From a virus: a DNA stretch of 64,000 nucleotides. Below are positions 5,505-63,515 of this stretch, in pieces. Every line of letters starts with the position of its first letter. Position 1 is the first letter of the stretch. The translations under genes and the position numbers were made by a program. The DNA lies in the IMG/VR virus record IMGVR_UViG_3300006947_000007, positions 18,406 through 82,405 of that record; one strand, 5' to 3'. A model generated the notes under the pieces. The model did not search any database and was not told the DNA's origin. It worked only from the letters and a program-made list of their open reading frames with translations.

Positions 5505-5903
5505 TTATTTAAATTGTTGACACAACATCAAATCATCTACTTGATATTCTGTTGATTTAATACAAGTATAAGCCAATAATATTGTTTCTGTCATTTCGTT
5601 ATACTCTTCCTCGGTGTGTCCTACTGTCTCGATTATTGGCTCACAGCCCTGGTAACCACCACCGCATTTTCTATATACTTCAGCAACTACAAAATCTAAT
5701 GTTTTGTCTGCTTTGTTAAGTTCTTCTAACTTGTTAATAATAGGAATAGCACATTGTCCATTGCCGTAATTTTGTATAGACTTATGACAAATAGACATCT
5801 CATCATATATTACTCTGCCTTCACTTTTAAGACTAAGTTCTATCGCATCTGTAGTACCACTAAGTGCTAATGTAAGTAGTGATAATAAAATAAGATCTAT
5901 CAT
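5505..5903 (-). CDS. hypothetical secreted Cys-containing protein
   Basis: Signal peptide, 6 Cys, operon context. Confidence 0.5.
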   Translation of the reverse strand: MIDLILLSLLTLALSGTTDAIELSLKSEGRVIYDEMSICHKSIQNYGNGQCAIPIINKLEELNKADKTLDFVVAEVYRKCGGGYQGCEPIIETVGHTEEEYNEMTETILLAYTCIKSTEYQVDDLMLCQQFK

Positions 5904-6097
5904 ACAGTCTTAGGTTTAGGTGACTCGTATATAGTGAGGTTGTCTAGGCCTTGATCTATCTTAGCCTTATCCATTATAGCATCAAAGGCTTTCTGATTCT
6001 GTAGTATTCTCAACTTTTTAAAGGCTTTCTGTGCCTCTGGTGTAGGCTTCTTCCAGCCTTTGTATTGTTCTTTAGCTCTTTCTTTTAATGACTTCAT
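5900..6097 (-). CDS. hypothetical protein
   Basis: GAGG RBS, overlaps neighbour. Confidence 0.5.
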   Translation of the reverse strand: MKSLKERAKEQYKGWKKPTPEAQKAFKKLRILQNQKAFDAIMDKAKIDQGLDNLTIYESPKPKTV

Positions 6098-6865
6098 TTA
6101 AGCCTCCTCGACTTTTTTAACATAATTTAAACTTGTTTCCCAAGCACCTTTATAAAACTTACTAAGACCAAGACGTTTCACCTTCGCTTTGATATCAATA
6201 ACATCATTAGTTTCACCTAATTCTTTACCGTTCCAAAAGTTAACAAGGAACTTGTTTTCGTATATACCTGTGTAAATAAATGATTCATAATTTTTAGAAT
6301 AAAAAGCATTTATAAGTTTAACACTACCTTCTATCTTATCACCTATTGAACCAATGTATTCATTAGCACAATTTTCTAATACAGTATCCTCAATAACTTC
6401 TTGTTTAGCATCTCTGTAATAAGCAGACGGAGTTGAACATAGTAAGCCTACTCCAAATGCCGGTACTTCTTCTTTGTCTAATGTTTGCCAAATGTTCTCA
6501 ACATACTCGTTAAGTTGACCACCTAGTGCTTCAAATATTTTACCTTGAAAGTGTGATTTAATATCTTCTGCTAGGCATTTATCTTCCATAGTGATTTCAA
6601 TCTTACAGGCTTGTAAGAAATCATATCTTTGTGGGTGGTGAGCATAACTAGGAAGGTTGCCTGTTACTAAAAAATATACTAGAGATTTGTTACTTGCTTT
6701 TGTAACAATCCATTTAGTAGGCTGATGATCAGGTTTGTGGTATTTTGTTTGATCTTCTTTAACATACGACCCGTTGATATGTTGGGCGGCACAAGCCGCC
6801 TGTAATACCAAATCTGTATTGTACGTTTTTGTTTGTTTCATAGCATTAGCCTTATAGTACATCAT
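6098..6865 (-). CDS. hypothetical protein with C-terminal OB-fold-like region
   Basis: YIGSIGDKIEG...KAKVK...ETSLNYVK pattern. Confidence 0.5.
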   Translation of the reverse strand: MMYYKANAMKQTKTYNTDLVLQAACAAQHINGSYVKEDQTKYHKPDHQPTKWIVTKASNKSLVYFLVTGNLPSYAHHPQRYDFLQACKIEITMEDKCLAEDIKSHFQGKIFEALGGQLNEYVENIWQTLDKEEVPAFGVGLLCSTPSAYYRDAKQEVIEDTVLENCANEYIGSIGDKIEGSVKLINAFYSKNYESFIYTGIYENKFLVNFWNGKELGETNDVIDIKAKVKRLGLSKFYKGAWETSLNYVKKVEEA

Positions 6866-7320: not shown

Positions 7321-8214
7321 TTATTTGAAGGCTTCGTCGAAGAATTCAGCCATTTTAGACATATATTTGGAATGTAAATGATGGTAATCATCATGACAGT
7401 ACTGCCGAAAGTGTCTCCTCATTACGGCTCCAGGTGGATTGTTTTTTGCTTCTTGACTCTTAAATTCAACAACCGATTTTTCATATTCCCATTGTATCAT
7501 ATTGTTATTTTTTAACATATTTAGACTTGCTGGAATACGGAACGAACTCATTAACGCCGGCGACCAGGAGAACCAATATACTTGTTTACCTTTGGTTTTT
7601 CTTAAGAACGAGTCTATAAATTCACATTGTGCTACGACATCTGAGTGTTTAGATTTAAGGCCGCCATTAACATTTGTTAAGACTTGCTTATATCCTCGCC
7701 ACTGTTCCTCTGTTAAACTATTAAATGACATACCGGTTTTTTCGGTCCAATATTGATTTAATTCTTCAATAGACATATTAGCATGAAATGAATCTATTAC
7801 CGGTGTCGCGTGTTCACGGTATTCTTCGTATAGGTTTTGGGGTAGACCATCTACCCATTCTTGAACTGGAAAGTAACGTTCATAGTGCTCATGGTAGTCT
7901 GAATTAACGTGTGCTGAAAGACGCTCTCCTTCAGGAATTTCTAGTACAAATACATCAGGATCATATCGATTTATTAATTCTAATATTCTTTTAAAGTAAG
8001 GTTCAATGCCTTGAGCAGGCTCACTACAATTGTAAATTTTATTATTAGGATGTCTTTGAGAAACTGCTTGAACTAGATTAGTTTCAAATGCAAATCTAGG
8101 ATTCGACTTTCTCTTTTCTCCGGGCCAACTATTAACATAAAGATTAGATTTAAATTCATCCTCACATTGGGACAAATAACTTGTTCCAATAAAGGCATAT
8201 GATTTATCTATCAA
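7321..8214 (-). CDS. SGNH-hydrolase-like protein
   Basis: N-terminal FIGTSY, C-terminal DDYHHL; paralog of 26063..26956. Confidence 0.45.
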   Translation of the reverse strand: MIDKSYAFIGTSYLSQCEDEFKSNLYVNSWPGEKRKSNPRFAFETNLVQAVSQRHPNNKIYNCSEPAQGIEPYFKRILELINRYDPDVFVLEIPEGERLSAHVNSDYHEHYERYFPVQEWVDGLPQNLYEEYREHATPVIDSFHANMSIEELNQYWTEKTGMSFNSLTEEQWRGYKQVLTNVNGGLKSKHSDVVAQCEFIDSFLRKTKGKQVYWFSWSPALMSSFRIPASLNMLKNNNMIQWEYEKSVVEFKSQEAKNNPPGAVMRRHFRQYCHDDYHHLHSKYMSKMAEFFDEAFK

Positions 8215-8582
8215 AACGGTACTTGAATATAATCATCTTCTTCTAAGTCGGGTGGTGTTAGAAGCTCTAATGTTATATGTTGCTCAACTGCTAAAGCATA
8301 CTCGTCAGCTAGTTGTTTAAGATGTGGATGTTTTTCTTCCATTTCTACATTACGGTCCAAATCTGCTGGAATACCTAATGCCCTTTCTATTCGCTGTAGG
8401 CGATAATTAACTTGGTCTAGTTCAGTATTGTCTTCTGCTAAATCTGAAAGCCTGGCTTTAAGAAATGGTTCATTAGCAAAGTCTATTCCTGATTCGGAAG
8501 TCATATATTTAATTGAGTTGCTATCTTCATTGTAATAACTATCTATGTCTAGTATATACTGGCCGTGTTCATCTGGGTTCAT
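8211..8582 (-). CDS. hypothetical protein
   Basis: Translationally coupled ORF. Confidence 0.55.
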   Translation of the reverse strand: MNPDEHGQYILDIDSYYNEDSNSIKYMTSESGIDFANEPFLKARLSDLAEDNTELDQVNYRLQRIERALGIPADLDRNVEMEEKHPHLKQLADEYALAVEQHITLELLTPPDLEEDDYIQVPF

Positions 8583-9874
8583 TTTGTTTCTCCTAATTCG
8601 ATCCTTTCTTCTTTCTTAGATCTTAGTGATGTAGCAATTGATCCACAGTTATCAATACAAATATTAAGCCTAGGCTTATCGGGATCATCTGTTTTATTAT
8701 CCCAACTATCATGTAAATCCTTTTGAAAGAATTTATGATGTAAGATATCTTCTAATGTATGATGACTTGTATAGTTCCACTTCTCATCATACTTGTTAAC
8801 ATAGTAATTTTGGTATTCGTTATCAGGCTGTCCTTGTTCGTTTGCTGAATCCTTGTTCCAAGGTCTACCAAAGTATGCTGTCATATGGCAACAAACATGG
8901 ACTCGTCCGTCCCATTCAATTTGTAGCTTTCCTTCATTGCCCCACTGACACCAAATGCTACAATTATTAGCATAGTCGTCCATATCGTTGTTAAACTCTT
9001 CGACAACAATTTTCTTTGCTTTTACTTCCATTTCTTTGTATGCTTCTGTAGTGTGACTGTGTTCGGCACCGTCGGACATGTCTTTCTTTTTTACCTTGCT
9101 AAAGCCATCAACTTCATAACTTGTTTCTTTGTCTTCCACAGTCATAACACCTGTTCTAATTGCTTCTTCTCTTAGTGTGTTAGAAATGTGTTCTGCCATT
9201 CTACTACGTCTAATATCAAACCTGGAGAATCCATATTCTTTTGCTAGTTTTTGAGCATCTTGTATCTGATGTTTGTTATGATCAAATTCTATAAACTGCC
9301 ATACTGCTACACCACCAGCATCCATAAACCACTTAGCTCTTTCTAATACTTTTTCGTAAGGTACACCCCTACGATACATTTGGTGTGTCTTATCGTCTGT
9401 GCCTTCTAAAGCAAATATAACTTCAGAGTTGTTAGGGTTATATCGTTCACTGGCAATCTTGCCTAGTTCAGTCCAAAATGCTTTATCTCTTACACCACCG
9501 TTTGTGCTAATCCATAAGTCAGTACGTCGGTTACGACCGTTTGCTTCACGCTCTGCTTTTTGTGAATCACTAACGTCTGCTATATGGTGTAAGATTTCAA
9601 TCAAGTCTGGGTGCATTATACAGTCACCAAACGTGCCATTAAAGTCTAATGTTTTAAGACCTCCCATTACTGTAGGAGTAAACACATTTTTAACAGTTGA
9701 CAACGGCATGTTACCCTTATGTCCTACTTGTATAGCAGGATTGATATCACCTTCTTTAAGTCCTAGTCGTGGAACATCTGACGATACACGCCTCAAGCAT
9801 CCAGGACAGAAACTATTACAGTTGGCTGTAATATCTATTGTAATTCTTCTAAGTTTTTTAGGGTCTAAGAACAT
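8579..9874 (-). CDS. radical SAM protein with C-terminal SPASM/twitch domain
   Basis: CNSFCPGC motif; C-terminal GRVHVCCH...CIDNC. Confidence 0.88.
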   Translation of the reverse strand: MFLDPKKLRRITIDITANCNSFCPGCLRRVSSDVPRLGLKEGDINPAIQVGHKGNMPLSTVKNVFTPTVMGGLKTLDFNGTFGDCIMHPDLIEILHHIADVSDSQKAEREANGRNRRTDLWISTNGGVRDKAFWTELGKIASERYNPNNSEVIFALEGTDDKTHQMYRRGVPYEKVLERAKWFMDAGGVAVWQFIEFDHNKHQIQDAQKLAKEYGFSRFDIRRSRMAEHISNTLREEAIRTGVMTVEDKETSYEVDGFSKVKKKDMSDGAEHSHTTEAYKEMEVKAKKIVVEEFNNDMDDYANNCSIWCQWGNEGKLQIEWDGRVHVCCHMTAYFGRPWNKDSANEQGQPDNEYQNYYVNKYDEKWNYTSHHTLEDILHHKFFQKDLHDSWDNKTDDPDKPRLNICIDNCGSIATSLRSKKEERIELGETK

Positions 9875-21236: not shown

Positions 21237-22517
21237 CTATTCAATTAATTCGTGGTAGTGAGGGAAATGATCAGAGAATGATATTTTTCTTCTTTTCTCT
21301 AATATTTCAAATTGCTTCTTTGCTAATTGCTTAGCCTCTGTACTTACCTTACCGCTAACCATAGATTTCATATCCCGTAGAACCGATATGTATCCTTGTT
21401 TATCGTCAAATGTTCCAGACATGTCGATAAAATAATCTATTTGTTCTTGTATTGTGTTAGTGTGGCTAGGGTCTAAACCTAACACAGAAAGCCACAACGG
21501 ATCTTGTACCCGATTATGGTGCATTATTATTTCTTTATCGTAATCAAATTTATTAATTTTCTCATTCAAATATATCAAAAAATCCTTAAAGTATGGTAGA
21601 CTTAAACTGTTATGAGCACAGCCAAATCCTAATATTAAATTTTTAGTTTCTTTTGATTGTTTAAAGAACGAGTCTACATTTTGGTTCCATTTATCAAAGT
21701 CCAGGCCCCATCTAATTAGTTCACTCCTCTTACCTAATGCTTCTCCGGAAAGTTGCATTTCATAACGAATGTTTGGGGTTCTCTTCACTAGCTCTATAAA
21801 CTTATCATACTTGTGTTTCGGAAAGTTTAAATTGGTTGTAACAACTAGTACAACTTCTTGCCCGTCGGTTATAGTGTCATTAATGTTAACTATAAATTCT
21901 TCTATAAATTGATACATGTGATTTGTAAAGAATGGTTCGCCACCTAATAAACTAAAGGTTATAAAATCTTTATGTTTAAGAGTACTGTTCCACCATTCAT
22001 TTAATAATTGAAGTACTTTTTCAAATATAGCATCCTCTGTATCTGGGAATCGTCTACCTGTTTCTTTCTGCCAACGGCTACTCTGACCTTCCCAACAATA
22101 GGCACATGCCATATTACATTTGTTTGTTAGTTCGAGTTCAACAAACTGAAATAGATCAGATGACAAGTCTAATTTTTTATTAAATAAGGGATTGTTTTTG
22201 CGAATATGCTCAGTTCTTGTACTAGTACCGCTCGCTTCTTCTGATTTCCAGCACCCAGAACAATCTGCGGATTGTATGCCGTTGCTTAATTCATATTTTC
22301 TTTTTTGTAGCGTTGGGTGATTGAGTAAGAAATCTAAGCCTTTTGCTTCTAATATATCTAAATCAAATGTAACTTCAGCTCGCTGATCTTCTGTTAATTC
22401 TGTCTTACAACACCAGTTGACTGTTTTATTTGGCAGAGATATAATAAGATCGTTCCAAGTTTTGAAACACATTGTATCCGCATGATGTTCAGACTGCAAA
22501 TGACTCGCCGCACCCAC
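21237..22517 (-). CDS. radical SAM protein with N-terminal twitch-like Cys cluster
   Basis: CFKTW..WCC..CSGC then CNMACAYC, GGEP; exact start uncertain. Confidence 0.88.
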   Translation of the reverse strand: MGAASHLQSEHHADTMCFKTWNDLIISLPNKTVNWCCKTELTEDQRAEVTFDLDILEAKGLDFLLNHPTLQKRKYELSNGIQSADCSGCWKSEEASGTSTRTEHIRKNNPLFNKKLDLSSDLFQFVELELTNKCNMACAYCWEGQSSRWQKETGRRFPDTEDAIFEKVLQLLNEWWNSTLKHKDFITFSLLGGEPFFTNHMYQFIEEFIVNINDTITDGQEVVLVVTTNLNFPKHKYDKFIELVKRTPNIRYEMQLSGEALGKRSELIRWGLDFDKWNQNVDSFFKQSKETKNLILGFGCAHNSLSLPYFKDFLIYLNEKINKFDYDKEIIMHHNRVQDPLWLSVLGLDPSHTNTIQEQIDYFIDMSGTFDDKQGYISVLRDMKSMVSGKVSTEAKQLAKKQFEILEKRRKISFSDHFPHYHELIE

Positions 22518-40179: not shown

Positions 40180-40380
40180 TCATTCTTTGCCCCATTCTAT
40201 TTTATCCCATACTCGTTCATGAATATAATACAAAATAGCCATACCAAATAAAGAAACAACAAACCAACCAGTCTGTTCCCAATTACCTGTTATAATATAA
40301 CTTACTATTGTTAAAAGAACTATAACAATAATTCTCCATGATATTGTTTTAACAATAGATCTTTTTTTAGTGTCCATCAA
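40180..40380 (-). CDS. DUF2061-like small membrane protein
   Basis: DTKKRSIVKTISWRII...YYIHERVWDKIEWG. Confidence 0.75.
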   Translation of the reverse strand: MMDTKKRSIVKTISWRIIVIVLLTIVSYIITGNWEQTGWFVVSLFGMAILYYIHERVWDKIEWGKE

Positions 40381-41680
40381 ACAGTTCCTTATACTGCGGT
40401 GTAACCATTAATATGTTTTGTTTTCTTTCTTGGTCTAAGTACTTTGTAAACTTAATAAATTCAGGCATTTTATCTGAATAGTCTTCAGCGTCCATATAGT
40501 TTGTTACACTATCTAATATTTTATTAAACTTTTGTTTAACATTGTCATCTATTGTTGTATCTTTATCTAATTTATCTTTATAATAATTGTAATGTTCGTG
40601 GACATCTTGTTTTAATTCTTTATTTAATAATCTAATATTAGCACGTTTAGGACCGTGAGCTACGTGATGTGTTATAACAGGCTTACTGCTACTTGAATTA
40701 ATCTTTTTATATCCTGATTCTTTTAATTTCCACATCATAAATTCAGGTAAATGAAATATATTATATGCTGTAACAGTAAAGGCAATCCAGGCAACAACAT
40801 TCTTAGGTAAATTATCTAACTTTTCTAAGTTTGCTTTTGCCTGTCGCCATTTAACTGGCCAACGTTGGTATTCTATCATCGGCCCCATTCCATCTATACT
40901 AGCACCGACTCTTATTTGTTTAAATTCTTCCCACATTTTTAATACTCTAGGTGGAAGTGATGTCATATTCGTATTATATTCAATCATTATATTTTTAGCA
41001 CACCCCGAATCAATACATCTCTGTAAGAATTCATAATGACGTTCGATCATCATCGGTTCGCCGCCTGCCATATAAACATGTTCAATATAAGGAATATTCT
41101 TTTCCATTTGTTCCCAAAATGTTTCTGAATTATGCCAATCATAGTCAGTTGTTTCTAACCTTCCTTTAGCATTACGTTTAAGTTCCACGGTTCCGTGTGT
41201 ATCTTCGTACGTTGTTCCTCCGTGGTACCCTAGCCATTGTTCGTACCATGTGTGACTATCAGTTGGGCCACACATCCTACAGGCTAGATTACATAAGTTT
41301 CCGAAACGTAAATCGTAATACTGGTTGCGAACTGTGATGCTACCGTCAGGTGCTGTATCACGAACAGCGGACTCGTAATCATATTCCCAATGCTCTAATT
41401 CGTACAACCTTCGGCTTTGTAATCCTGCTTCTTCTTCAGATTTACAGCGACCGCACTCCTCACTCCAACGACCTGCTAACATATTTTTACGAACTATCTT
41501 CATTAGGTCAGCGTTCTTGGCATCATCAAAGTTATCACGGCCAGCATTAAAACTGGTACCGTCTGGGTGTCTTACTACGCCCTGATTCTTAGTCACATTG
41601 GCTTGACAACATATTCTAATGTCTCCATTGTTTCTAACTGCTTGGAAGTTCCAAGGTATCGGGCAAAATGTTTTACTCAT
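40367..41680 (-). CDS. radical SAM protein with N-terminal twitch domain
   Basis: FCPIPW..ICC..CGRC; CNLACRMC; GGEP. Confidence 0.92.
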   Translation of the reverse strand: MSKTFCPIPWNFQAVRNNGDIRICCQANVTKNQGVVRHPDGTSFNAGRDNFDDAKNADLMKIVRKNMLAGRWSEECGRCKSEEEAGLQSRRLYELEHWEYDYESAVRDTAPDGSITVRNQYYDLRFGNLCNLACRMCGPTDSHTWYEQWLGYHGGTTYEDTHGTVELKRNAKGRLETTDYDWHNSETFWEQMEKNIPYIEHVYMAGGEPMMIERHYEFLQRCIDSGCAKNIMIEYNTNMTSLPPRVLKMWEEFKQIRVGASIDGMGPMIEYQRWPVKWRQAKANLEKLDNLPKNVVAWIAFTVTAYNIFHLPEFMMWKLKESGYKKINSSSSKPVITHHVAHGPKRANIRLLNKELKQDVHEHYNYYKDKLDKDTTIDDNVKQKFNKILDSVTNYMDAEDYSDKMPEFIKFTKYLDQERKQNILMVTPQYKELFDGH

Positions 41681-43259: not shown

Positions 43260-43987
43260 GTTAGTATTTCCGTTAATTTAGGTATTATAGCCTCGGCAAA
43301 CTTTTTATGACTCTTTGCTCCGGGGTGTTTATCTTTGTAATCATCATTAGCATACGTTGGACTATTTCGTTGTATACCTACGCCAGGTATAAAGAACTGC
43401 TTATGGCATAGGTGTTGAGCATAATTAAATGCAGAAACATCGTAATGATCTTTACATAGTAGTTCATCGCTTTCAACATAAGCATAAGGAATCTTTAAAT
43501 TACCTAGATATTGTTCTGCGATACCTACTTCTTTATATAAATTAATTAATTGTTGTGCTTTATTAATATATAATTTATTGTGGGCGTTAATTAATGATTT
43601 ATCTATTCCATTAGTAGTACTTGCCCATGTACTGTTAGAGAAGTTAGGTTGTTTATCTTCACTCCAGTTTAAATGTATAACACCGTCGTCAGCAATATAA
43701 CTTACGTTTTCTTTATTACTAACCACGTCAGTAAAATATTCATTTCTATTAGCATTTGGCCATTGTATAAACACAAAGTCAGGATAGCCGTGTACGGGGT
43801 TATCTAAGTATTGTAATAATATTCTATTAACCGTGCTAGGACTTGCTCCTGGTATTGCTAAATTAATTAATTTATTAAATCCTAATTGTTCTTTTAATTG
43901 TATAGTATAACTATTATATCTTATGCCATACTGTATGTGATGACCTAAATGACTATAGCTACAGCCTAGTACTAATAAATTACTCAT
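43256..43987 (-). CDS. SGNH-hydrolase-like protein
   Basis: LGCSYS, NLAIPGAS, DKHPG..SH. Confidence 0.6.
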   Translation of the reverse strand: MSNLLVLGCSYSHLGHHIQYGIRYNSYTIQLKEQLGFNKLINLAIPGASPSTVNRILLQYLDNPVHGYPDFVFIQWPNANRNEYFTDVVSNKENVSYIADDGVIHLNWSEDKQPNFSNSTWASTTNGIDKSLINAHNKLYINKAQQLINLYKEVGIAEQYLGNLKIPYAYVESDELLCKDHYDVSAFNYAQHLCHKQFFIPGVGIQRNSPTYANDDYKDKHPGAKSHKKFAEAIIPKLTEILT

Positions 43988-45245
43988 TTAAAAATTCCTT
44001 TAATTTAGGAAATACCGTTTCCCAATTCTCTTGTCTTACTACATCTACTACTCGCTCGTGTTTATTAAAGTTCGCTAGTGCTGACGTTGTGATTAAAGAA
44101 TCCATTATATGAGCAAGGTCTAACGTTTGTAAACTATTCTTTAATTCTGTTAAAGAATGCCATACTTGATTTTGCCACTTGCTACTTACTCCTTCATCAG
44201 CAAAATTAAATGAGTTAAAATCCTCATCAATCAATTCTAATAACCTAGTCTTCTGCTTATTATTTAAGCAATATACACTTAGGTGTGACGGTTCGCTTAA
44301 TCGTGCTGTATTAAGAAAGAATGACTCTTTATCATTTAATATGCTTTTATCTATATACATAGTACACCAATCTATAAACTCTCTATAGTATAACACATTA
44401 TAGAGGCTTTGTGTGTGCGATACGCCAATATATATGTTTTTATTTTCGTTATGTAGTTTACAGTACCAAGCAACAGCTTCTTCTACCTTACTCCAATTAC
44501 TCTTCTTACGCATAAACTCGCCACGTTTGCCTATGCCATCTAAGGACATATTAAGGAATACTGTATTAAACTTATTAAAGTTTTTAATATATTTGTTTTT
44601 AGGAATGAATGTAGCATTAGTAAAGATGTCTAATGTAATGTTCTTAGCAAAACCCCAATCAACTAAGCGTTGTAGGAACTCTGCTAGGTATTCACTAAGG
44701 AATGGTTCACCACCTGTTACTTTAACTTCATTTAAGTATTTACAGTCGTCCTTAGATAAGTTAAGCATTGTGTCTATTGTCTTAGGTATTGCCTTATCCT
44801 GTTCCCAGGCTTCATTGTTACCATAAAACCATTTAACCAAATGATCCGATGCTTCTAAGTCTTCATCCCAACTTGTACTTAATACTGGGTCACATATACG
44901 ACATTTAAGGTTACAGTAGCGTCCTGTTGTTATTTCTAAGTAAGTCAACACTCCTTTTATCTCTGGAGAGTTCGGCTTAACACTACGATTAAACTTATCA
45001 TATGGTAATAGACTGCTTGTTCGCATACTAGTATTACTAGAGTCTTCTTCTACTTTACAGCGTAAACAACCATTATCCCATATACCATTAGCCATGTTAT
45101 CTCTAGGCGTACTATATAACTCTTTGAATTCAATAGGATTATCTACGTATTCACTATTGCCTGTGTAACGACAACAAGGCTTAACACTACCGTTAGGTTC
45201 TATCATCATTCCATGCTCTAAATACTTACATACTATCGCGGTCAT
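43980..45245 (-). CDS. radical SAM protein with N-terminal twitch domain
   Basis: VKPCC..CLRC; CNLKCRIC; GGEP. Confidence 0.9.
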   Translation of the reverse strand: MTAIVCKYLEHGMMIEPNGSVKPCCRYTGNSEYVDNPIEFKELYSTPRDNMANGIWDNGCLRCKVEEDSSNTSMRTSSLLPYDKFNRSVKPNSPEIKGVLTYLEITTGRYCNLKCRICDPVLSTSWDEDLEASDHLVKWFYGNNEAWEQDKAIPKTIDTMLNLSKDDCKYLNEVKVTGGEPFLSEYLAEFLQRLVDWGFAKNITLDIFTNATFIPKNKYIKNFNKFNTVFLNMSLDGIGKRGEFMRKKSNWSKVEEAVAWYCKLHNENKNIYIGVSHTQSLYNVLYYREFIDWCTMYIDKSILNDKESFFLNTARLSEPSHLSVYCLNNKQKTRLLELIDEDFNSFNFADEGVSSKWQNQVWHSLTELKNSLQTLDLAHIMDSLITTSALANFNKHERVVDVVRQENWETVFPKLKEFLNE

Positions 45246-46825: not shown

Positions 46826-48028
46826 CTATATACGAGGATTAACCCGTTCGAAATAAGTTTGACGTTGGTTGTCTAATAGAGCCGTATATGCCCTAAACTT
46901 TGGTACTAACTCTGGTTGATATGGTATTGAGTCTGACCATTTTATCAGCTCTTCACATCGCCTTGGAAAACTTTTTTTGACTACACTAATCATACGCTCA
47001 CGTTCACTATAGGGGACCACTGCAAGCCCTAAAAAGCCCTGATCAACTGGTTGTATGACTAATTCACAATGGCCTTGAATAGATCCATCCTTATTAAACT
47101 CGCTTTTCCACTTGTCGCAGTACTTTATAACGTCTAATACAGCCGACCAGTTCCAGGCTTGTAACACGAAGTGAAACGATACGATAGAACTCAGCCTGCC
47201 CCATTGTGTCCGTAGTAAGTGTTCTACAGCATTATCAAACCTATCCCACTTAGCAGGTGTTCTAATGTATTCATATTCCGAGCCGGTACCATCTATGCTA
47301 AGAGTCCATGACACTTGCGCAAACTTCTTCAAGTATGGTTGTATGTTATTAAATTGTACAGGTGTAGAAGCATTGGTTGTTATATCAACCTTACTGTGTT
47401 CATTGTATTCCATCTTGTCTAGTATACTGTACACTTCTTTTTGTATTGTAGGTTCTCCCCCTAGTAGCTTTAAGTTGACTACCTTGTTTAACTCTGGTAG
47501 TTCGTAATGCTTCCTCTGTGAAAATTTCGCTAACTCGTCGTTATCAAAGTTGTTCTCTAGTGTTATATTTGCAATGCCATTTGGTTCTTGTAACTTGAGC
47601 CATTCCCTCGCGATTTCTGTGCTGTTATCGGGGTAACACATGCGACACTTTAAGTTACATAGGTTACTAGGGCGTATATCTGCCCAACGAGGATCTGGCA
47701 TTGTTAATTCTAATGGTTCGTCAGGATCTATAGTATCACTATGTACAGCAGATTCATACCAGGCATCGAACATATGACGATCAGACTCTAGTCCTATGTC
47801 CTCTCTTTCTTTACATTGGTGACATGTTGAGTGCCATTCACCTTCTAGCATAGACTTTCTTATGTCCTGTGCTAGAGGATTATTGAATACATCATCCATT
47901 TCATTGCTAGTTAGCTCGTGCCGGCCGGTATTCATACAGCATACACGTGACTCTTTAGACGAGGCCCGGAGGTAAACGTTGTAGAATGGAGCATAGCATA
48001 GAGGTTTGGAGGGCTTTTCGGTTGACAT
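46826..48028 (-). CDS. radical SAM protein with N-terminal twitch domain
   Basis: LCYAPF..VCC..CHQC; CNLKCRMC; GGEP. Confidence 0.92.
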   Translation of the reverse strand: MSTEKPSKPLCYAPFYNVYLRASSKESRVCCMNTGRHELTSNEMDDVFNNPLAQDIRKSMLEGEWHSTCHQCKEREDIGLESDRHMFDAWYESAVHSDTIDPDEPLELTMPDPRWADIRPSNLCNLKCRMCYPDNSTEIAREWLKLQEPNGIANITLENNFDNDELAKFSQRKHYELPELNKVVNLKLLGGEPTIQKEVYSILDKMEYNEHSKVDITTNASTPVQFNNIQPYLKKFAQVSWTLSIDGTGSEYEYIRTPAKWDRFDNAVEHLLRTQWGRLSSIVSFHFVLQAWNWSAVLDVIKYCDKWKSEFNKDGSIQGHCELVIQPVDQGFLGLAVVPYSERERMISVVKKSFPRRCEELIKWSDSIPYQPELVPKFRAYTALLDNQRQTYFERVNPRI

Positions 48029-54805: not shown

Positions 54806-55132
54806 ATGATAACAATAACTGAAGTAGGTGCCGAACGAGTAACTCGGTATTTAGAAAACAGAAAGAAAGGATTGGGCATCAGGGTCAAAATTCAAACGAC
54901 AGGATGTTCGGGTTACGCATATCATTTAGAGTTTGTTGATGAAGCAAATGACGATGATAGTATATTTGAATCAAACGGTGTAAAGATTTTAGTTGATAAT
55001 AAATCATTAACGATGATTGATGGCACAGAATTAGATTACAAAGTTGATGGCCTCAACGCAGGATTTGCCTTTAAGAATCCATACGAAGATGCAACATGCG
55101 GATGCGGAGAATCATTTACACTTAAAAACTAA
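54806..55132 (+). CDS. iscA: A-type Fe-S carrier IscA
   Basis: RKKGLGIRV..TTGCSGYAY.LEFVDE...CGCGESF; gamma/beta-proteobacterial style. Confidence 0.9.
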   Translation: MITITEVGAERVTRYLENRKKGLGIRVKIQTTGCSGYAYHLEFVDEANDDDSIFESNGVKILVDNKSLTMIDGTELDYKVDGLNAGFAFKNPYEDATCGCGESFTLKN

Positions 55133-55141
55133 AAGGAAACT

Positions 55142-55297
55142 ATGAGAACAAAAATAAGAATGCAATCATCGGAATCTCCACACTTTTATACACGACATAA
55201 GAATAATCGATTACATCCAGAAAAGATGAAGTTAAATATGTTTGACCCAACAGTAAGAAAGCACGTGGTGTATAATGAAAAGAAGATTAAGAAATAG
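55142..55297 (+). CDS. rpmG: 50S ribosomal protein bL33 (Zn-independent type)
   Basis: [51 protein letters not shown]; AAGGA RBS; missed by ORF track. Confidence 0.9.
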
Positions 55298-55338
55298 GGG
55301 TTGACAACAGCGGCTGTTTGCAGTATACTAACAACACT

Positions 55339-55797
55339 ATGAGAATATCTAAAGAGTTCGAAAGCAGTTTAGAATTCGGCGACAAGCTAGAGAAGAACTA
55401 TGCTCTTACAGTGATCCAGAAGATACATCCTAAGTGTACTATACACGAACCAGAAGAGTATAGAGAAGATGGATTAGCAGTTCCTGATCATATAGTAAAG
55501 AAGGGTAAAAAAATTGTAGCCTTTTATGATAGCAAGAACAAGCGAAGCACATATAAAGTAAGAGGCGTACCAGAAAGATTCTGGAGCGTAGATGAGAAAC
55601 TATTAGAGTATAGAACGTATGCTCTAAAACATAAAGTTCCATGCTACTTGTTATTTTACAATAAGAGTAGTGATAAAGAGAATGTGTACATTGTTGATGT
55701 TACAGTTGAACCTAAATTCTACAAACGAATTAATAACAGATTTGGAGAACATTGGTTCGGCTACTACATATCACAAACAACACCATATGCGATATGA
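55339..55797 (+). CDS. PD-(D/E)xK nuclease-like protein
   Basis: E...PD...FYDSK pattern; TTGACA-N17-TATACT just upstream. Confidence 0.5.
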   Translation: MRISKEFESSLEFGDKLEKNYALTVIQKIHPKCTIHEPEEYREDGLAVPDHIVKKGKKIVAFYDSKNKRSTYKVRGVPERFWSVDEKLLEYRTYALKHKVPCYLLFYNKSSDKENVYIVDVTVEPKFYKRINNRFGEHWFGYYISQTTPYAI

Positions 55798-56150
55798 CAC
55801 TATCAGACGTAGTATTAAAAAAGAACACTAGGAACCATGACAGCAAGTACCGTCATATAACTAACAACACAAGTGACTATCATGCTATAATAGATTTCGG
55901 CAGTTTTGATTTAAGCATTGTCCAGAACGATAGAGACTACGGTAACAATCAAAATCAATTTCAAATTGTCGTATTCGGTAAAGATGGAGCAACAGAACTA
56001 GACTTACCAAACATACCAAAGGCGGGCTATGGATTAAACACACCTAGCTACAACAGTTGGTTAACATTCACAGACTTAGACAGCATACTCAGACAACTAG
56101 AGTTTGAAGCATTAGCAGTACATAAGTTTAAACCCAGACAAGTACAGTAA
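55794..56150 (+). CDS. hypothetical protein
   Basis: ATGA overlap with upstream gene. Confidence 0.55.
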   Translation: MTLSDVVLKKNTRNHDSKYRHITNNTSDYHAIIDFGSFDLSIVQNDRDYGNNQNQFQIVVFGKDGATELDLPNIPKAGYGLNTPSYNSWLTFTDLDSILRQLEFEALAVHKFKPRQVQ

Positions 56151-56157
56151 CTAACAA

Positions 56158-56234
56158 GTCTCCATAGCTCAGTTGGATAGAGCAACAGCCTTCTAAGCTG
56201 TAGGTCATAGGTTCGAATCCTATTGGGGACACCA
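56158..56234 (+). tRNA. tRNA-Arg(UCU)
   Basis: GTCTCCA...TGGGGAC-A-CCA cloverleaf, anticodon loop CTTCTAA. Confidence 0.95.
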
Positions 56235-56244
56235 CATTACACTA

Positions 56245-56504
56245 CGGAGTCGATTGATACAGAAAAGCAGTAATGCTAAAGCGAAGCGTAGCATATATGC
56301 TTTGAGCGACGACTGTGTAGACTCACACTAAAGAGCCTTAACTATCAGCTTGTATGTACAGACGTGCGACGCGGAGGTACATGCAAGAAGGCGGTTGTGT
56401 AGGAGCACAGTAAAGAAGGCAAAGACATCTGAAGAGTCAGCCCTGCTGACCTGAAGTGCCTGGTACTGTAGAAGCTACCGCCAAAAAAAAATCTAAAAGC
56501 TCCG
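56245..56504 (+). ncRNA. candidate structured ncRNA (~260 nt)
   Basis: GC-enriched, no long ORF, at least 7 nested helices with closing stem CGGAGT/GCTCCG. Confidence 0.55.
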
Positions 56505-56545
56505 CATATATCGTCCGCCAGCCCACCAATTATAATAACGTCATA

Positions 56546-57295
56546 TTATACTAGCCTACCGAAGCCCCACATTCGTTCTAAACAAAACCAACACACTTCA
56601 CAATGCGATGAGAAATCATCTGTCCATGCTTCGCAACTACGTGTAAGTGGGAATAGGGTATCTAGTAATCCGAAGTGTGAATACAGTTCAGCAACTGCTT
56701 TCTTATCTACATTAATCAATGGACTAAAGATATTACCAGGTGTTCCCCAATCAGGTGGGAACGTTGCGGGGTCACCGTAGTATTGTATGGGTAACAGCTT
56801 ATCTGTTTTGTTACGTTCGGGCGGCATACTTACTTCTTGATGTTTCTCATCTTGTCCTACGAACTCGCTAGGGTTTGCTGTAACACCATTGAACAAGCAA
56901 CGTATCTTTAAATTATCAAACAGCTTTTGGGTTATTAATCTTTGATCCTCATTATAGTTTGGATTGGCTTTACCTTCATCCCCCATGTGCGGGTTTATTT
57001 CTATAATGGGGTCCGAGCCTAGTCCTGTGATGTGCTCACCAAACGTAACAGTAGGCCATTGTTCCTTTAAGAAAGCAACTACACCTTTAGCAAACTTTAC
57101 TTGATATGCTTTACCTGGTTGGTCCATTGTGATCGGATACACAATAGGATCGCTGTTACATTCTTCTACAATAGCTTTACATAACATCCAACCTACTACA
57201 GCCGAGTCGGCACCGCCACTTACCTTATATCCTATATTCTTATAGTGTTTAGGAATTGTAAATTCAATACGGCCTTGTTTTGTATCTAATATCAT
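56546..57295 (-). CDS. QueC-like PP-loop ATP pyrophosphatase
   Basis: SGGADSA; TRSCE...HCEVCWFCLER Zn motif. Confidence 0.75.
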   Translation of the reverse strand: MILDTKQGRIEFTIPKHYKNIGYKVSGGADSAVVGWMLCKAIVEECNSDPIVYPITMDQPGKAYQVKFAKGVVAFLKEQWPTVTFGEHITGLGSDPIIEINPHMGDEGKANPNYNEDQRLITQKLFDNLKIRCLFNGVTANPSEFVGQDEKHQEVSMPPERNKTDKLLPIQYYGDPATFPPDWGTPGNIFSPLINVDKKAVAELYSHFGLLDTLFPLTRSCEAWTDDFSSHCEVCWFCLERMWGFGRLV

Positions 57296-57312
57296 ATGCT
57301 ATCTCAGTATAA

Positions 57313-57341
57313 TTGGATAGGCTCTTTGTTAACTAATTCAA
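57313..57341. repeat. 29-bp perfect direct repeat, copy 1
   Basis: TTGGATAGGCTCTTTGTTAACTAATTCAA, also at 57794..57822. Confidence 0.9.
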
Positions 57342-57763
57342 ACATTATTAATCTCCATCCAACGTTTTACTACTGGCATCAGTTGTTCGTGTGTATTATC
57401 AAACCAACCTTCGATGTGATAGTCTACATTACTGGGTGGTTCAAACATTGCATTAGTATCATCAAAGCGTCCTTCTTTAATAGTGTCCATCCATATTGTG
57501 AAGTCTGGATTAAAGTTTTGTCTTGCTTCTTCTGTAGGACAAATGAAATCACACACTGCAATTTTACCTGCCATAACTACACCATCTGCTAAGTGTTTCA
57601 TACGAACCGATTGTCTAATGCGACCTGATAGACTAAAGTCCCAATCATTATAACTTGTTCTAACTACGTCAGCATTAATCCATACACCATTAACTAGTTT
57701 AGCAAATGGTTCTGCTAGTGTTGACTTACCGCTACCTGGAAGTCCGCATATTAATATTTTCAT
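57338..57763 (-). CDS. cysC: adenylyl-sulfate (APS) kinase-like protein
   Basis: GLPGSGKST, ADVVR...DWDFS..GR, FICP, FEPP; start MKILI after GAGGA. Confidence 0.75.
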   Translation of the reverse strand: MKILICGLPGSGKSTLAEPFAKLVNGVWINADVVRTSYNDWDFSLSGRIRQSVRMKHLADGVVMAGKIAVCDFICPTEEARQNFNPDFTIWMDTIKEGRFDDTNAMFEPPSNVDYHIEGWFDNTHEQLMPVVKRWMEINNV

Positions 57764-57793
57764 CTTGCTTGTCCTCATGCCAGCAGTAAAACG

Positions 57794-57822
57794 TTGGATA
57801 GGCTCTTTGTTAACTAATTCAA
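57794..57822. repeat. 29-bp perfect direct repeat, copy 2
   Basis: Identical to 57313..57341. Confidence 0.9.
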
Positions 57823-58481
57823 TCAAGTTTACCAAAGCCCCATTCACGTTCTTTACAGTACCAACACTTGCCACAATGTTTACTAAAGTCTAACGTTACT
57901 TCTTCGCAACTGCGGGTCTCTAAGAACAGCGTATCCAGGAGATTATATTGTTTGTATATACTTGCTACACCTTGTTTATCTGTATTAATAAACGGTCGAT
58001 AACCAGGATGACTATTATCGCCGTTCCATTGAGCAAACTTGCCAAAGCGAGTATCGTCGAACTCACCTATTGACTCATCTTCAAACTGTTCTGATATTTC
58101 CCTTGGGGGGTTTTGAGTAATACCGTTGTAGTGTCTTTCAATCTTAAATTCGTTGTATGCTTTATCTAGTACTACGTCTTGAGCATCACTGTAATCCATA
58201 CTGCCTGTATCGTTGGTAACGTGTGCTATTACTTTTACAGATGGGAACTCGTGTTGTAACCATGTTATAACTTTTTTACTGAATATTCTTTGATACGGTT
58301 TATCGGTATGGTCAGTTGTTATAATTACAATTTCTACGTCTAAGTTTTGTTTGTGTATTGTTTTGAATATCATATACGAAACTCCGGCACTATCAGCACC
58401 ACCGGATACTTTAATACCTATTCGTTTTACTGTATCAAGATTGCCAAAGTTATAAGTGTCTTGTTCTGTTTTAAATATCAT
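57819..58481 (-). CDS. QueC-like PP-loop ATP pyrophosphatase
   Basis: SGGADSA; TRSCE...HCGKCWYCKER. Confidence 0.75.
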   Translation of the reverse strand: MIFKTEQDTYNFGNLDTVKRIGIKVSGGADSAGVSYMIFKTIHKQNLDVEIVIITTDHTDKPYQRIFSKKVITWLQHEFPSVKVIAHVTNDTGSMDYSDAQDVVLDKAYNEFKIERHYNGITQNPPREISEQFEDESIGEFDDTRFGKFAQWNGDNSHPGYRPFINTDKQGVASIYKQYNLLDTLFLETRSCEEVTLDFSKHCGKCWYCKEREWGFGKLD

Positions 58482-58953
58482 GTTTTAACATTTCTCTAAT
58501 TTCGTTATATGGCTTATCAAAACTTATTTGTAAAAAAAATCTATCTTTACTTGATTTAGGGACCGAATGTTCTTGTTGGTTGTTTTGTAAGTAAACACCT
58601 AAGTTATGATGTAGCGTCCAAGCGTAGCCAACATCATTTCTAAATATAGTAGGTGTCTCTGAAGCATTTAATTGAAACGTCATACTTGATTTTCTTTTGT
58701 CATCAGTATGCCAAGGTACCTCACCTTTGTTTTTTAAAAACACAGGCCACCCGACTTTTAAAAAATCCTTTGCTTTTTCTTTAAACCAGTTTGGTAATAA
58801 TTCTGCTTCGGTAACATGATTGTTATCAGGCGCATTATCTTTCTCAATTAAATACGGTTCAAAGTTACTATGCTGTGCTATTTGATATAGTTCGTCTCTT
58901 TCATTTTGATTCAAATTTATATCTACTTTACAATAAAAATCTTTTACTTCCAT
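58471..58953 (-). CDS. 2OG-Fe(II) oxygenase-like protein
   Basis: PWHTD, EHSV...RFFLQ. Confidence 0.6.
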   Translation of the reverse strand: MEVKDFYCKVDINLNQNERDELYQIAQHSNFEPYLIEKDNAPDNNHVTEAELLPNWFKEKAKDFLKVGWPVFLKNKGEVPWHTDDKRKSSMTFQLNASETPTIFRNDVGYAWTLHHNLGVYLQNNQQEHSVPKSSKDRFFLQISFDKPYNEIREMLKHDI

Positions 58954-58954
58954 G

Positions 58955-59647
58955 TTATAATTTCCCAAATCCCCATTCACGTTCTTTACAAAACCAGCAG
59001 TCATTACAATGCTCGTCAAAGTTATTTGTCCATGCTTCGCAACTTCTAGTTTGGTTAAACAATGTATCTTCTAATCCATATTGCTTATATAACTCAGCGA
59101 CACCTTTTTTGTTTGTGTTAATAAGAGGCCTATAACTTGGTTGGTTTGGATTGTTGTTACATTGAGGTTGGTTCGGTACATCACGTTCTGGTGTACCACC
59201 ATTTAATACCGGACCTTCTTTACTAAAAAATTGTTCATACACTTCTTTTGGAGGGTTAGCAGTAATGCCATTATAATGTCTTTCAATACCTAACATATAT
59301 GCTTCATCTAATAAATTGTCTTGCCTGTTATGATACTCTGTACTGGTCCATTTATTACCTACTTTAACTGCTGGGCAAGTATTAGTAAGATGCTCGCCTA
59401 TCGTTACATTAGGAAATTCGTTTATTAACCACATAAGAACCTTATCAGAATAAACTTTTTGATATGCTTTTTGTTCGTGTACAGTTGTTAGTAAAGTTAC
59501 TTTAGTATTGTACTTGCATTCTTGTATTGTTTTGAATAACATATAAGCAACAATGGCCGAGTCAGCGCCACCGGATAATTTAATACCTATGTGCTTGTTG
59601 TTTAAACCTTCAAATTGATATGTGTCTTGATCGGTCCAGTATATCAT
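58955..59647 (-). CDS. QueC-like PP-loop ATP pyrophosphatase
   Basis: SGGADSA; TRSCE...HCNDCWFCKER; start MIYWT. Confidence 0.75.
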   Translation of the reverse strand: MIYWTDQDTYQFEGLNNKHIGIKLSGGADSAIVAYMLFKTIQECKYNTKVTLLTTVHEQKAYQKVYSDKVLMWLINEFPNVTIGEHLTNTCPAVKVGNKWTSTEYHNRQDNLLDEAYMLGIERHYNGITANPPKEVYEQFFSKEGPVLNGGTPERDVPNQPQCNNNPNQPSYRPLINTNKKGVAELYKQYGLEDTLFNQTRSCEAWTNNFDEHCNDCWFCKEREWGFGKL

Positions 59648-59706
59648 ATACTTACTTATAAGGTCTGAACATAAGATAATAAATACTTGATACAAAGGGA
59701 ACACCT

Positions 59707-62258: not shown

Positions 62259-63515
62259 TTAATTGGGTGCTTTTGGAGAAGGCAATGTGTCGTATATGTG
62301 TTCAATAAAGGAATAAACTATAGGCACATGGTCTTTAATATGCTGTTTCCTAGCAGTATCAAATGCCTTAGTTGCGTTGGCTAACATCCAGAGATTAGGT
62401 TTAGTGTAATCTGTTAATAATCCTTTTAGAAGTTTCTTAAGAGGTTTGTGTGATTCCTCCATTAATCTAACAACATACGGATCTGTAATGTTTAATATAC
62501 GTTCTATCTCGTTGTGCCTAGCGTTGACTGGCAAGTTGTTAACTGTGGCCCAGTTAGGTCCTTCTATATTATAGAACTCTACAGGTAACGTGATAGTTTC
62601 TAAATTAATTGCTTTGTTATAATCAGCTAACCAAAACAGAAAGTCATATACATTAAAAAGGTTTAATGCTTGTAATGTAAAATGTATTTGTCTATGTTCT
62701 GATAAGTTGACCCATTCGGTTATTACTTCTTGTGCTTTATTCCAATGCAACGGAGAGCGGATATATTCTAATGTTTTTCCTATGCCGTCGATGCTTAATT
62801 GTGCTCCTATACTACGAAACTTTTTAAGTTTGTCAAACATTGCTTTGTTATTAAAATTAGTACAGTTGGTTGTAATGTGTATGTTACAATTAGTCTTGTC
62901 AGCATCTATTAACGTGTCTAGCATTTGAGATACCTCTGGCATAATAGTAGGCTCGCCACCTAAGAATTTTATATCGCTATCATCTGTTAACCCAGATATT
63001 AAATGGTTTATATTATCTTTACTCATGACACTTGGAGAAAATTCTACTGTGTGCCCAGCCCACTTAGACAAGTAAGGGTTTTTCTTTTGCTCTTTATCTA
63101 GTTGACTACTATACTTGGGTGTACACATTCTACATTTTAAGTTACATAGGTTGCTCGGGCGTATATCGAGGTCTAACGGCGTGTTTAAATTGGTTCCAGT
63201 AACAACATTAAGTTCTGGACTGCTGTGCTTTTGATACTTCGCATCAAACATTTGTCTATCACTATCGATGCCATCTTCTTCTAAACTCCAACAACTAGAA
63301 CATATATCAAGTTTTTCACCTGCTAACATTCGTCGTCTAATGTCTTGGTAGTAATCACTTTGCCAATGATTCTCTAAATCCAATGATTCGACAGTATGTG
63401 TTCCTAATGGTTCGTTGCTAGTACAACACACTCGAGGCCCATCATTCGGGTGTATGTATTTGTGTATGAATGGAGCATAGCATATATTTTTATGATGCTT
63501 GGTATTACTCATCAT
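62259..63515 (-). CDS. radical SAM protein with N-terminal twitch domain
   Basis: ICYAPF..VCC..CSSC; CNLKCRMC; GGEP. Confidence 0.92.
   Translation of the reverse strand: MMSNTKHHKNICYAPFIHKYIHPNDGPRVCCTSNEPLGTHTVESLDLENHWQSDYYQDIRRRMLAGEKLDICSSCWSLEEDGIDSDRQMFDAKYQKHSSPELNVVTGTNLNTPLDLDIRPSNLCNLKCRMCTPKYSSQLDKEQKKNPYLSKWAGHTVEFSPSVMSKDNINHLISGLTDDSDIKFLGGEPTIMPEVSQMLDTLIDADKTNCNIHITTNCTNFNNKAMFDKLKKFRSIGAQLSIDGIGKTLEYIRSPLHWNKAQEVITEWVNLSEHRQIHFTLQALNLFNVYDFLFWLADYNKAINLETITLPVEFYNIEGPNWATVNNLPVNARHNEIERILNITDPYVVRLMEESHKPLKKLLKGLLTDYTKPNLWMLANATKAFDTARKQHIKDHVPIVYSFIEHIYDTLPSPKAPN

Follow-up and report, generated by a model that had tools for sequence, protein, structure and literature searches.

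We analysed a stretch of viral DNA of 64,000 nucleotides (nt), positions 18,406 to 82,405 of the IMG/VR virus record IMGVR_UViG_3300006947_000007, which is called the window in the following. The complete record comprises 82.4 kilobases (kb) and has a CheckV completeness of 23%, so that the phage genome is probably very large. On the + strand, genes for an IscA-like iron-sulphur assembly protein and for ribosomal protein bL33 adjoin each other and belong to a gene block which ends with a tRNA-Arg(TCT) gene and the element described here. The 310 nt 3' of this tRNA gene contain no open reading frame (ORF) longer than 34 amino acids (aa), and the intergenic block is flanked by converging ORFs at 55752-56150 (+) and 56546-57295 (-). 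The cumulative GC skew peaks at the element, i.e. at the strand-switch point. An initial annotation had described a GC-enriched block directly after the tRNA gene as a candidate novel multi-domain non-coding RNA (ncRNA) outside the known classes. Judged from its sequence and six homologues, the block contains a real, conserved and structured non-coding RNA element of ~235 nt on the + strand, which supports this proposal.

Homologues were obtained by scanning metagenome contigs from JGI, ENA and TARA with an alignment of close relatives of the QueC-like protein encoded by the converging gene. Seven close loci were found, and the closest relatives of this protein show 77-85% identity. Using blastn the element was detected in six of these loci (L004, L005, L007, L008, L009 and L010), and the seventh, L006, stops short of the site where the RNA would be expected. 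Over the core, nucleotide identity to the window is 75-82%; the upstream ORF132 gene reaches 63-65% and the gene of the QueC-like protein 78-88%. Conservation begins abruptly at the sequence ACACU (window position 56239), irrespective of the upstream sequence. The tRNA-Arg gene itself was confirmed by ARAGORN and Rfam (Table 1). A structured block after its CCA end is present as proposed, with a core that begins 5 nt past the CCA and not 10.

Folded as RNA, the + strand from 56235 to 56520 reached -91.4 kcal/mol (z = -4.45) and none of 200 dinucleotide shuffles was as good, compared with z = -1.36 for the - strand of the same region. The sense strand of L005 gave z = -3.82. The GC content of the block amounts to 0.465-0.475 versus 0.32-0.39 in the flanks, so that the enrichment noticed before was real. 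Moreover, the check for covariation was positive: 27 of the 69 base pairs changed on both sides, and the observed values were reached by none of 500 shuffles. Standard pairs occupy 91.2% of the pair cells, and a shift of the partner by 1-3 columns lowers this value to 21-40%.

When the seven sequences were compared, no conserved ORF was found in the block. Almost all of the six frames contain 1-13 stop codons, the exception being a single frame in the short L010 copy, which has none. Each pairwise comparison shows 4-9 insertions or deletions (indels) that are not multiples of three, and substitutions are spread flatly over the codon positions. A small ORF following GGAGG-N3-AUG in the middle part of the element (module II, see below) was considered and rejected, since it is not conserved: L007 lacks the AUG and the frame is shifted by indels. 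With respect to orientation, the helices contain 14 G-U cells versus 6 A-C cells when read on the + strand, in agreement with the earlier view that G-U pairs favour this strand. One U-G pair is retained in six of the seven sequences, where the other strand would read a C-A mismatch. Besides, both genes flanking the RNA in the relatives run in its sense. The G-U pairs and the gene context thus point to the + strand.

Architecture of the element

The alignment is better described by a model in which three tandem irregular hairpins share one design at their base (Table 1). Each module starts with a helix of 5 base pairs (bp), ACA(C/G)U with A(G/C)UGU, followed by a 5/3 internal loop and a second helix of 4-5 bp, which is GUCG/CGAC in module I, GCCUU/AAGGC in module II and AGGCA/UGCCU in module III. 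The 5-nt strand of the internal loop ends in A, usually reads NAAGA and faces the 3-nt strand G-R-U. Across the family this last A and the facing first G are invariant; the second pair varies, being often G-G, A-A or U-A, and an extra U is present. In addition, 22 unpaired positions of the element are invariant. A strict pattern for the module base has 15 instances, all of them within the seven RNAs and none elsewhere in ~150 kb, and shuffled sequences give 0.07 per 64 kb. Minimum free energy (MFE) folds of the window, L005 and L008, each calculated from the single sequence, yield modules on their own.

Covariation is concentrated in GUCG/CGAC, in the two upper helices of module I, in GCCUU/AAGGC, in the long hairpin of module II and in the apical helix of module III. 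The helix GUCG/CGAC has compensatory changes to U-A in L008, to U-A in L009 and to C-G in L010. For the upper helix of module I the variants AGCG/CGCU (L005) and GGCA/UGCC (L009) were observed, and the first pair of the inner helix changes from A-U to G-C. The apical helix of module III occurs as GUCAGC/GCUGAC, CCCAG/CUGGG, UCCAG/CUGGA or GACAG/CUGUC.

Several natural variants were found. L010 (3889-4083, -) lacks module III and has an altered bulge in module II, module I of L007 (6169-6409, -) is reduced to a simple hairpin, and L009 (7625-7902, -) lacks the A-run, the CUCCG and the -35 block that follow the RNA. Having lost the upper part of module I, L007 retains the same topology with ACGC-U-GUCGGC...GCCGAC-CC-GCGU. 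As the base helices are invariant, the choice to pair ACACU with AGUGU inside each module, and not between modules, is based on L007, the MFE folds and the threefold symmetry; the alternative would be the arrangement given by RNAalifold. In the window, the AGUGU of modules I and II shows a concerted change from A to U in its first base (56314 and 56396). A further concerted change was seen in L004 (about 1375-1380 and 1290-1295), where GGCGA replaces GGCGG after both module II and module III.

RNAalifold and a first covariance model, R1 (273 positions, 70 pairs), had given 89.8% paired cells and 26 pairs changed on both sides. R1 scores the six homologues with 160-278 bits. It contained a hairpin formed locally at 56247-56262, another of GUGU with ACAC, and a helix joining ACACU and AGUGU over a long range, and was replaced by the three-module model after an all-against-all column-pair scan. 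In the scan of all column pairs of the seven sequences, no pseudoknot or inter-module pairing was supported. The pairings of UAUC (bulge of module II) with GRUA (loop of module III), GAUAGU with ACUAUC, UUGA with UCAG and GGCGG with CCGUU have at most one compensatory event each.

The initial annotation had listed eight nested helices, of which four hold and four fail when tested on the six homologues. The 11-bp helix CTTGTATGTAC/GTACATGCAAG and the hairpin GTCAGC-CCT-GCTGAC are both retained with covariation, and ACAGTA/TACTGT and GGCA/TGCC recur as the invariant helices ACAGT/ACTGT and AGGCA/TGCCT. The proposed closing helix CGGAGT/GCTCCG is not supported: its 3' part CTCCG is conserved, whereas changes in the 5' half are not compensated, and the GTCG there forms pairs with CGAC at 56307-10. 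For GGCGGT/ACCGCC, the ACCGCC exists in the window only and the GGC is part of the covarying GCCTT/AAGGC helix. In place of the GNRA hairpin AGCA-GTAA-TGCT, covariation favours AAAGCA/TGCTTT together with ATGCTA/TAGCAT. Finally, TTGATA/TATCAG is broken or shifted in three of the seven sequences.

Table 1. Features of the window and of the RNA element, with their positions in the window
Feature	Position	Strand	Remarks
Conserved core, three tandem hairpin modules, ~231 nt	56239-56469	+	six homologues, covariation
Module I	56239-56318	+	covariation; L008 MFE fold gives module
Module I base helix	ACACU 56239-43 with UGUGU 56314-18	+	no covariation
Module I internal loop	ACGGA / GAC	+	
Module I second helix	GUCG 56249-52 with CGAC 56307-10	+	three independent compensatory changes
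Module I upper helix	AAAGCA 56264-69 with UGCUUU 56298-303	+	covaries
Module I inner helix	AUGCUA 56273-78 with UAGCAU 56289-94	+	covaries
Module II	56325-56400	+	window and L005 MFE folds give module
Module II base helix	ACACU 56325-29 with UGUGU 56396-400	+	
Module II internal loop	AAAGA / GGU	+	
Module II second helix	GCCUU 56335-39 with AAGGC 56388-92	+	2 compensatory changes (L007 G-C, L010 C-G)
Module II 9-nt bulge AACUAUCAG	56340-48	+	
Module II 16-bp hairpin	56349-64 with 56372-87	+	contains CTTGTATGTAC/GTACATGCAAG; 10/16 pairs changed on both sides
Module III	56407-56469	+	absent from L010
Module III base helix	ACAGU 56407-11 with ACUGU 56465-69	+	invariant, 6/6 sequences
Module III internal loop	AAAGA / GGU	+	
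Module III second helix	AGGCA 56417-21 with UGCCU 56457-61	+	invariant, 6/6 sequences
Module III pairing	CAUC with GAAG	+	
Module III apical helix	AGAGUCAGC 56433-41 with GCUGACCU 56445-52	+	6/8 pairs changed on both sides
Variable linker and tail	56470-56505	+	window-specific hairpin GUAG-AAG-CUAC; ACCGCC 56477-82; A9 run 56483-91; CUCCG 56500-04
Relic of promoter block	56506-56552	+	only CCGCC 56515-19 and -10-like TATTAT 56544-49 remain
tRNA-Arg(TCT), encoded CCA	56158-56234	+	ARAGORN; Rfam tRNA 74.7 bits
ORF132 family gene, orphan, 118-132 aa	55794-56150	+	tblastn synteny
IscA-like Fe-S assembly protein	54806-55132	+	PF01521, 76.9 bits
Ribosomal protein bL33	55142-55297	+	PF00471, 46 bits, above cutoff
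Three QueC-like / PP-loop paralogues	56546-57295, 57819-58481, 58955-59704	-	within 56546-59704
APS-kinase-like gene, interleaved with the QueC-like paralogues	57338-57874	-	PF01583
Radical-SAM-like ORFs	8579-9874, 21237-22517, 40367-41680, 43980-45245, 46826-48028, 62259-63515	-	PHROG matches

Neighbouring genes and distribution of the family

A gene of the ORF132 family is the only neighbour that is found 5' of the RNA and on its strand in every locus that reaches upstream, namely in the window and five relatives. Among 5.8 billion proteins, this family accounts for only 11 clusters. Neither Pfam nor PHROG gave a match, and an AlphaFold2 model of ORF132 (mean confidence, pLDDT, 77) gave no Foldseek match in the PDB. 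A tRNA gene is located between the ORF132 gene and the RNA in two of the seven loci only, the window and L004. In L005 (5121-5198, -) and L009 (8612-8688, -), a tRNA-Arg(GCG) gene is found upstream of the ORF132 homologue, ~0.4-0.7 kb from the RNA. The tRNA-Arg thus differs in both position and anticodon between close relatives, and its linkage to the RNA is incidental and not a feature of the family. In L009 an 88-aa ORF without an assigned family (7957-8223, + in the locus and thus opposite to the RNA) lies between the ORF132 homologue and the RNA.

Downstream of the RNA, the A-run and CUCCG are kept in six of the seven sequences and deleted in L009. A conserved block was identified in five relatives, which consists of the A-run, CUCCG, CGCCCGCCAC and a sigma-70-like promoter, TTCACA-17-TATAAT (11 of 12 positions in a scan of L005). 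The promoter is located at L005:4396-4424(-) with equivalent sites in L007, L008 and L010, each with the A8-T4-A4 / CTCCG / CGCCCGCCAC block upstream. The TATAAT precedes the ATG of the following gene, ORF353, by ~12 nt, which implies a nearly leaderless mRNA. Genes of the ORF353 family (353 aa, same strand) follow the RNA in five relatives, for example at L005:3324-4385(-), L009:6551-7624(-) and 5527-6564(-), and L010:2776-3834(-). In the window and in L004 the ORF353 gene has been lost and a decayed copy of the block abuts the converging gene; in the window the -10-like TATTAT overlaps the stop codon of that gene. The change of GGCGG to GGCGA in L004 is accompanied by a change of CUCCG to CUUCG, one compensatory event that hints at a pairing of the tail with 56390-94. 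The tail could be part either of the RNA itself or of the promoter region behind it.

For the ORF353 family no match to Pfam or PHROG was obtained. A language-model search (score 0.91) provides a lead towards a sulfotransferase-like protein. The family has a conserved N-terminal YxGG(S/T)GGE motif; L009 contains tandem paralogues, and the genes of L007 and L008 are apparently truncated or split.

Near-identical DNA to that of the window is present in marine and seawater metagenomes of many studies, and DNA runs from some sites contain 0.96-0.97 of the words sampled from the phage. No close cultured phage was found, the DNA ligase being at most 36% identical to that of any GenBank phage. Searches for further members of the RNA family were negative. 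Among GenBank phages, blastn with the window copy returned the tRNA match only and with the L005 copy none. In IMG/VR, three pattern scans and three protein-anchored scans, including those with the ORF132 and QueC-like alignments, detected no other member, and the window's own record was possibly left out of these scans; L012, the sole pattern-scan match, turned out to be a chance match in coding DNA. Two pattern scans of GTDB genomes gave no copy, the covariance model R1 found no member in the distant QueC-like or ORF353-like loci L002, L003, L011 and L013-L016, and the phage's own 82-kb record contains no second copy. We also compared assembled contigs of three marine metatranscriptome runs and one DNA run with 55000-58000. 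None of the RNA-library contigs covers 56245-56504, a result which is uninformative on expression either way; their matches were mainly due to unrelated tRNAs (56165-56223), and a few exact stretches of low depth fell into the flanking genes.

At the gathering threshold, Rfam 15 (4227 models, among them group I/II introns and self-cleaving ribozymes) identified only tRNAs in the window and in the six homologous loci, and at E<=5-10 only spurious sub-threshold matches appeared (TCL6_1 with 14.7 bits, HIV-1_SL3 and mir-392). The earlier statement that hallmarks of transfer-messenger RNA (tmRNA), RNase P, signal recognition particle (SRP) RNA and 6S RNA are missing is consistent with this, as Rfam 15 detects none of them. 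On these comparisons we rate the element as a new RNA family outside Rfam 15, whose fold has good comparative support and which falls into the known, broad category of orphan structured RNAs encoded by phages. In the data available, the family is confined to a single lineage of uncultured phages from the sea. A covariance model of its own would be warranted, since no current library detects it.

Comparison with known RNAs and possible functions

Several known classes were considered for the element and rejected. With ARAGORN the tRNA-Arg gene was the only one detected in the window, and the element itself gave no match in any of the loci, so that a tRNA or tmRNA is not indicated. An intrinsic terminator, i.e. 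a GC-rich hairpin with a U-tract, is not indicated either, as no terminator-like site was seen on either strand in window 55600-56800 or L005 4200-5266. A sponge for CsrA of the CsrB/RsmZ type is not supported, as only one GGA recurs, which six of the seven sequences have within or close to the apical loop of module II. SRP-like strings were rejected as well, and complementarity to the anticodon loop of the tRNA-Arg was found in L004 only.

The catalogue of candidate phage RNAs from IMG/VR by Fremin and Bhatt (2023) contains motifs of 29-151 nt, for which at least three IMG/VR regions were required (PMC10690425). Like these candidates, the present element is an orphan phage RNA motif that emerged from comparative genomics and covariation, and it is longer. 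GOLLD and ROOL are large, ornate RNAs of phages or prophages, of unknown function and often located beside tRNA genes (PMC12286853). RNA-only self-assembling particles have now been shown for them. Similarly, our element is a phage-encoded structured ncRNA with many conserved unpaired nucleotides, and the window copy follows directly after a tRNA. However, it has ~235 nt compared with about 580-800+ nt, so that GOLLD and ROOL are 2-4 times larger. Moreover, these RNAs are pseudoknotted, whereas we found a string of hairpins without supported pseudoknots, and tRNA adjacency is seen in two of seven loci. The GOLLD and ROOL models of Rfam did not match at E<=10, and the 231-nt core falls below the ~500 nt used as a size criterion for this group.

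A protein-free function, as a ribozyme or as an RNA-only particle that assembles itself like GOLLD and ROOL, is very improbable in our estimation. It would agree with the multi-helix architecture and the conserved unpaired nucleotides, with the phage origin and the position beside a tRNA in the window, as GOLLD and ROOL often occur near tRNA islands (PMC12286853), and the threefold repeat could support symmetric contacts. Nevertheless, no Rfam ribozyme model matches at E<=10 either, neither a pseudoknot nor inter-module pairing is supported, and variants with deleted modules occur. The hammerhead-like CUGAAGAG (56429-36) is followed by a stem and then by CCUGAAG in place of the GAAA expected directly after the stem, and U4 is replaced by C in L005, L007 and L008.

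A standard kink-turn consists of a 3-nt bulge and tandem G-A/A-G pairs, with GA on the non-bulged strand beside the canonical stem. Kink-turns and purine-rich asymmetric loops of the UAA/GAN type serve as docking sites for proteins or tertiary contacts. At the level of sequence, the module base resembles them in the succession of a helix, a longer NAAGA strand facing a shorter strand that starts with G, and a second helix, and a sheared A-G pair would be possible. It differs from the kink-turn in that the shorter strand has 3 nt (G-R-U) and not the 2-nt GA, and in the frequent G-G, A-A or U-A at the second G-A pair.

Our preferred, though tentative, reading is that the element is a stable trans-acting RNA which would offer three copies of one binding platform. 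The RNA would form the last part of an auxiliary or early + strand unit (IscA-like, bL33, ORF159, ORF132, tRNA-Arg, RNA). In the window genome, its 5' end would be released by the nucleases with which the host matures tRNAs, as they trim the adjoining tRNA, and the released RNA might then persist as a stable species. A similar route is known from the tRNA gene cluster of phage T4, in which species 1 and 2 (rnaC / rnaD), stable RNAs of ~120-140 nt and unknown function, are co-transcribed with tRNAs and freed by tRNA-processing nucleases. The likeness would apply to the window copy; five of the seven loci have no tRNA next to the RNA. The three repeated base motifs may represent three docking sites for one protein, encoded by the host or the phage, and the ORF132 product is one candidate. 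The role of the RNA would be that of a scaffold or decoy, rather than of a message or leader. That it represents a previously unknown class of phage RNAs, whose three platforms recruit or sequester a specific cellular or phage protein in a ribonucleoprotein (RNP) scaffold or decoy during takeover of the marine host, is a more doubtful proposal which we regard as somewhat unlikely. In that case the partner might be a component of translation or of RNA processing, given the bL33 and tRNA genes of the phage nearby.

A trans-acting RNA is favoured by the 22 invariant unpaired positions, by the occurrence of the same internal loop three times and by the concerted A-to-U change in modules I and II. 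The loss or remodelling of single modules in L010 and L007 would fit modules that act independently. A function in trans rather than in cis is suggested because the window and L004 retain the RNA although both have lost the same-strand gene downstream and a converging gene directly adjoins it. It appears unlikely that the element acts in cis at the 3' end of the upstream unit, where its hairpins would provide processing sites, barriers to 3' exonucleases or a roadblock, protect the end of the ORF132/tRNA transcript and insulate the next unit. Such a role would explain why ORF132 is always found immediately upstream of the RNA and on its strand, and why in the window it is found at the junction of converging units for which no intrinsic terminator is predicted on either strand. 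It is further in line with the independent promoter that follows in five relatives and with the tolerated loss of single modules. However, barrier hairpins need no conserved loops, and the 22 invariant unpaired positions are more than a simple exonuclease barrier requires. Neither the threefold repetition of the 5/3 internal loop nor the lack of a U-tract after the hairpins speaks for such an element, and in L009 an ORF on the opposite strand separates ORF120 from the RNA.

It is quite improbable that the RNA serves as a cis-regulatory leader of the gene cluster of the sulfotransferase-like ORF353, i.e. as an antiterminator or as a riboswitch-like or protein-responsive element on read-through transcripts. 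In five of the seven loci, ORF353 family genes indeed follow the RNA at a distance of 60-100 nt. L009 has a deletion of the -35 region, so ORF357 may depend on read-through, and the compensatory change in L004 hints at a pairing of GGCGG with the tail which would compete with GCCUU/AAGGC. Yet the near-consensus promoter lies between the RNA and the start of ORF353 and leaves only the short distance from the -10 box to the ATG, and the structure is fully kept in the window and in L004 although ORF353 is absent and the next gene converges. For the same reasons a riboswitch or 5' leader class was rejected.

Least probable to us is a DNA-level element, such as a site for replication or recombination or one upstream of a promoter, or hitch-hiking conservation without any function of the RNA. 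In favour of it, the cumulative GC skew peaks at this strand-switch point, an A-tract and the conserved promoter block follow, and in L005 both strands fold equally well (z = -4.07 for the antisense strand). In contrast, recognition of a DNA sequence does not predict the compensatory double changes that keep 27 pairs, and strand-specific G-U pairs are kept. Tandem G-A pairs occur within a helix, as is usual in RNA, and conservation starts abruptly at ACACU whatever lies upstream.

Several points weigh against the conserved trans-acting RNA that we prefer. The antisense fold of L005 is as stable as the sense fold, and therefore the strand is not settled by thermodynamics alone. The seven sequences come from one phage lineage, their alignment was partly fitted to a structure, and the three base helices as well as AGGCA/UGCCU never covary. 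The predicted model of ORF132, the candidate partner, has no recognisable RNA-binding fold. Deletions of whole modules could equally signal a dispensable element, and the conserved tail and promoter block after the RNA would also be compatible with a role in cis.

Among the structured RNAs of phages, only a few are known that exceed a tRNA in size, and for GOLLD and ROOL, the most prominent of these, no function has been established so far. The present family adds a compact example of ~235 nt with a clear modular fold and with natural variants that lack single modules. If the repeated motif is a docking site for proteins, the RNA would be a tractable model for RNP-based host takeover by phages. 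Should it act merely in processing or at a 3' end, it would be a well-documented but ordinary feature. Its threefold modular architecture is unusual and easily tested, and the RNA is small enough for probing in vitro, pull-downs and structural work. The genome that encodes it belongs to an uncultured marine phage which also carries bL33, IscA, tRNAs and an unusual enzyme island. With regard to the latter, at least six radical-SAM-like ORFs were identified in the window by PHROG matches, all of them on the - strand, which makes this enzyme island unusually large.

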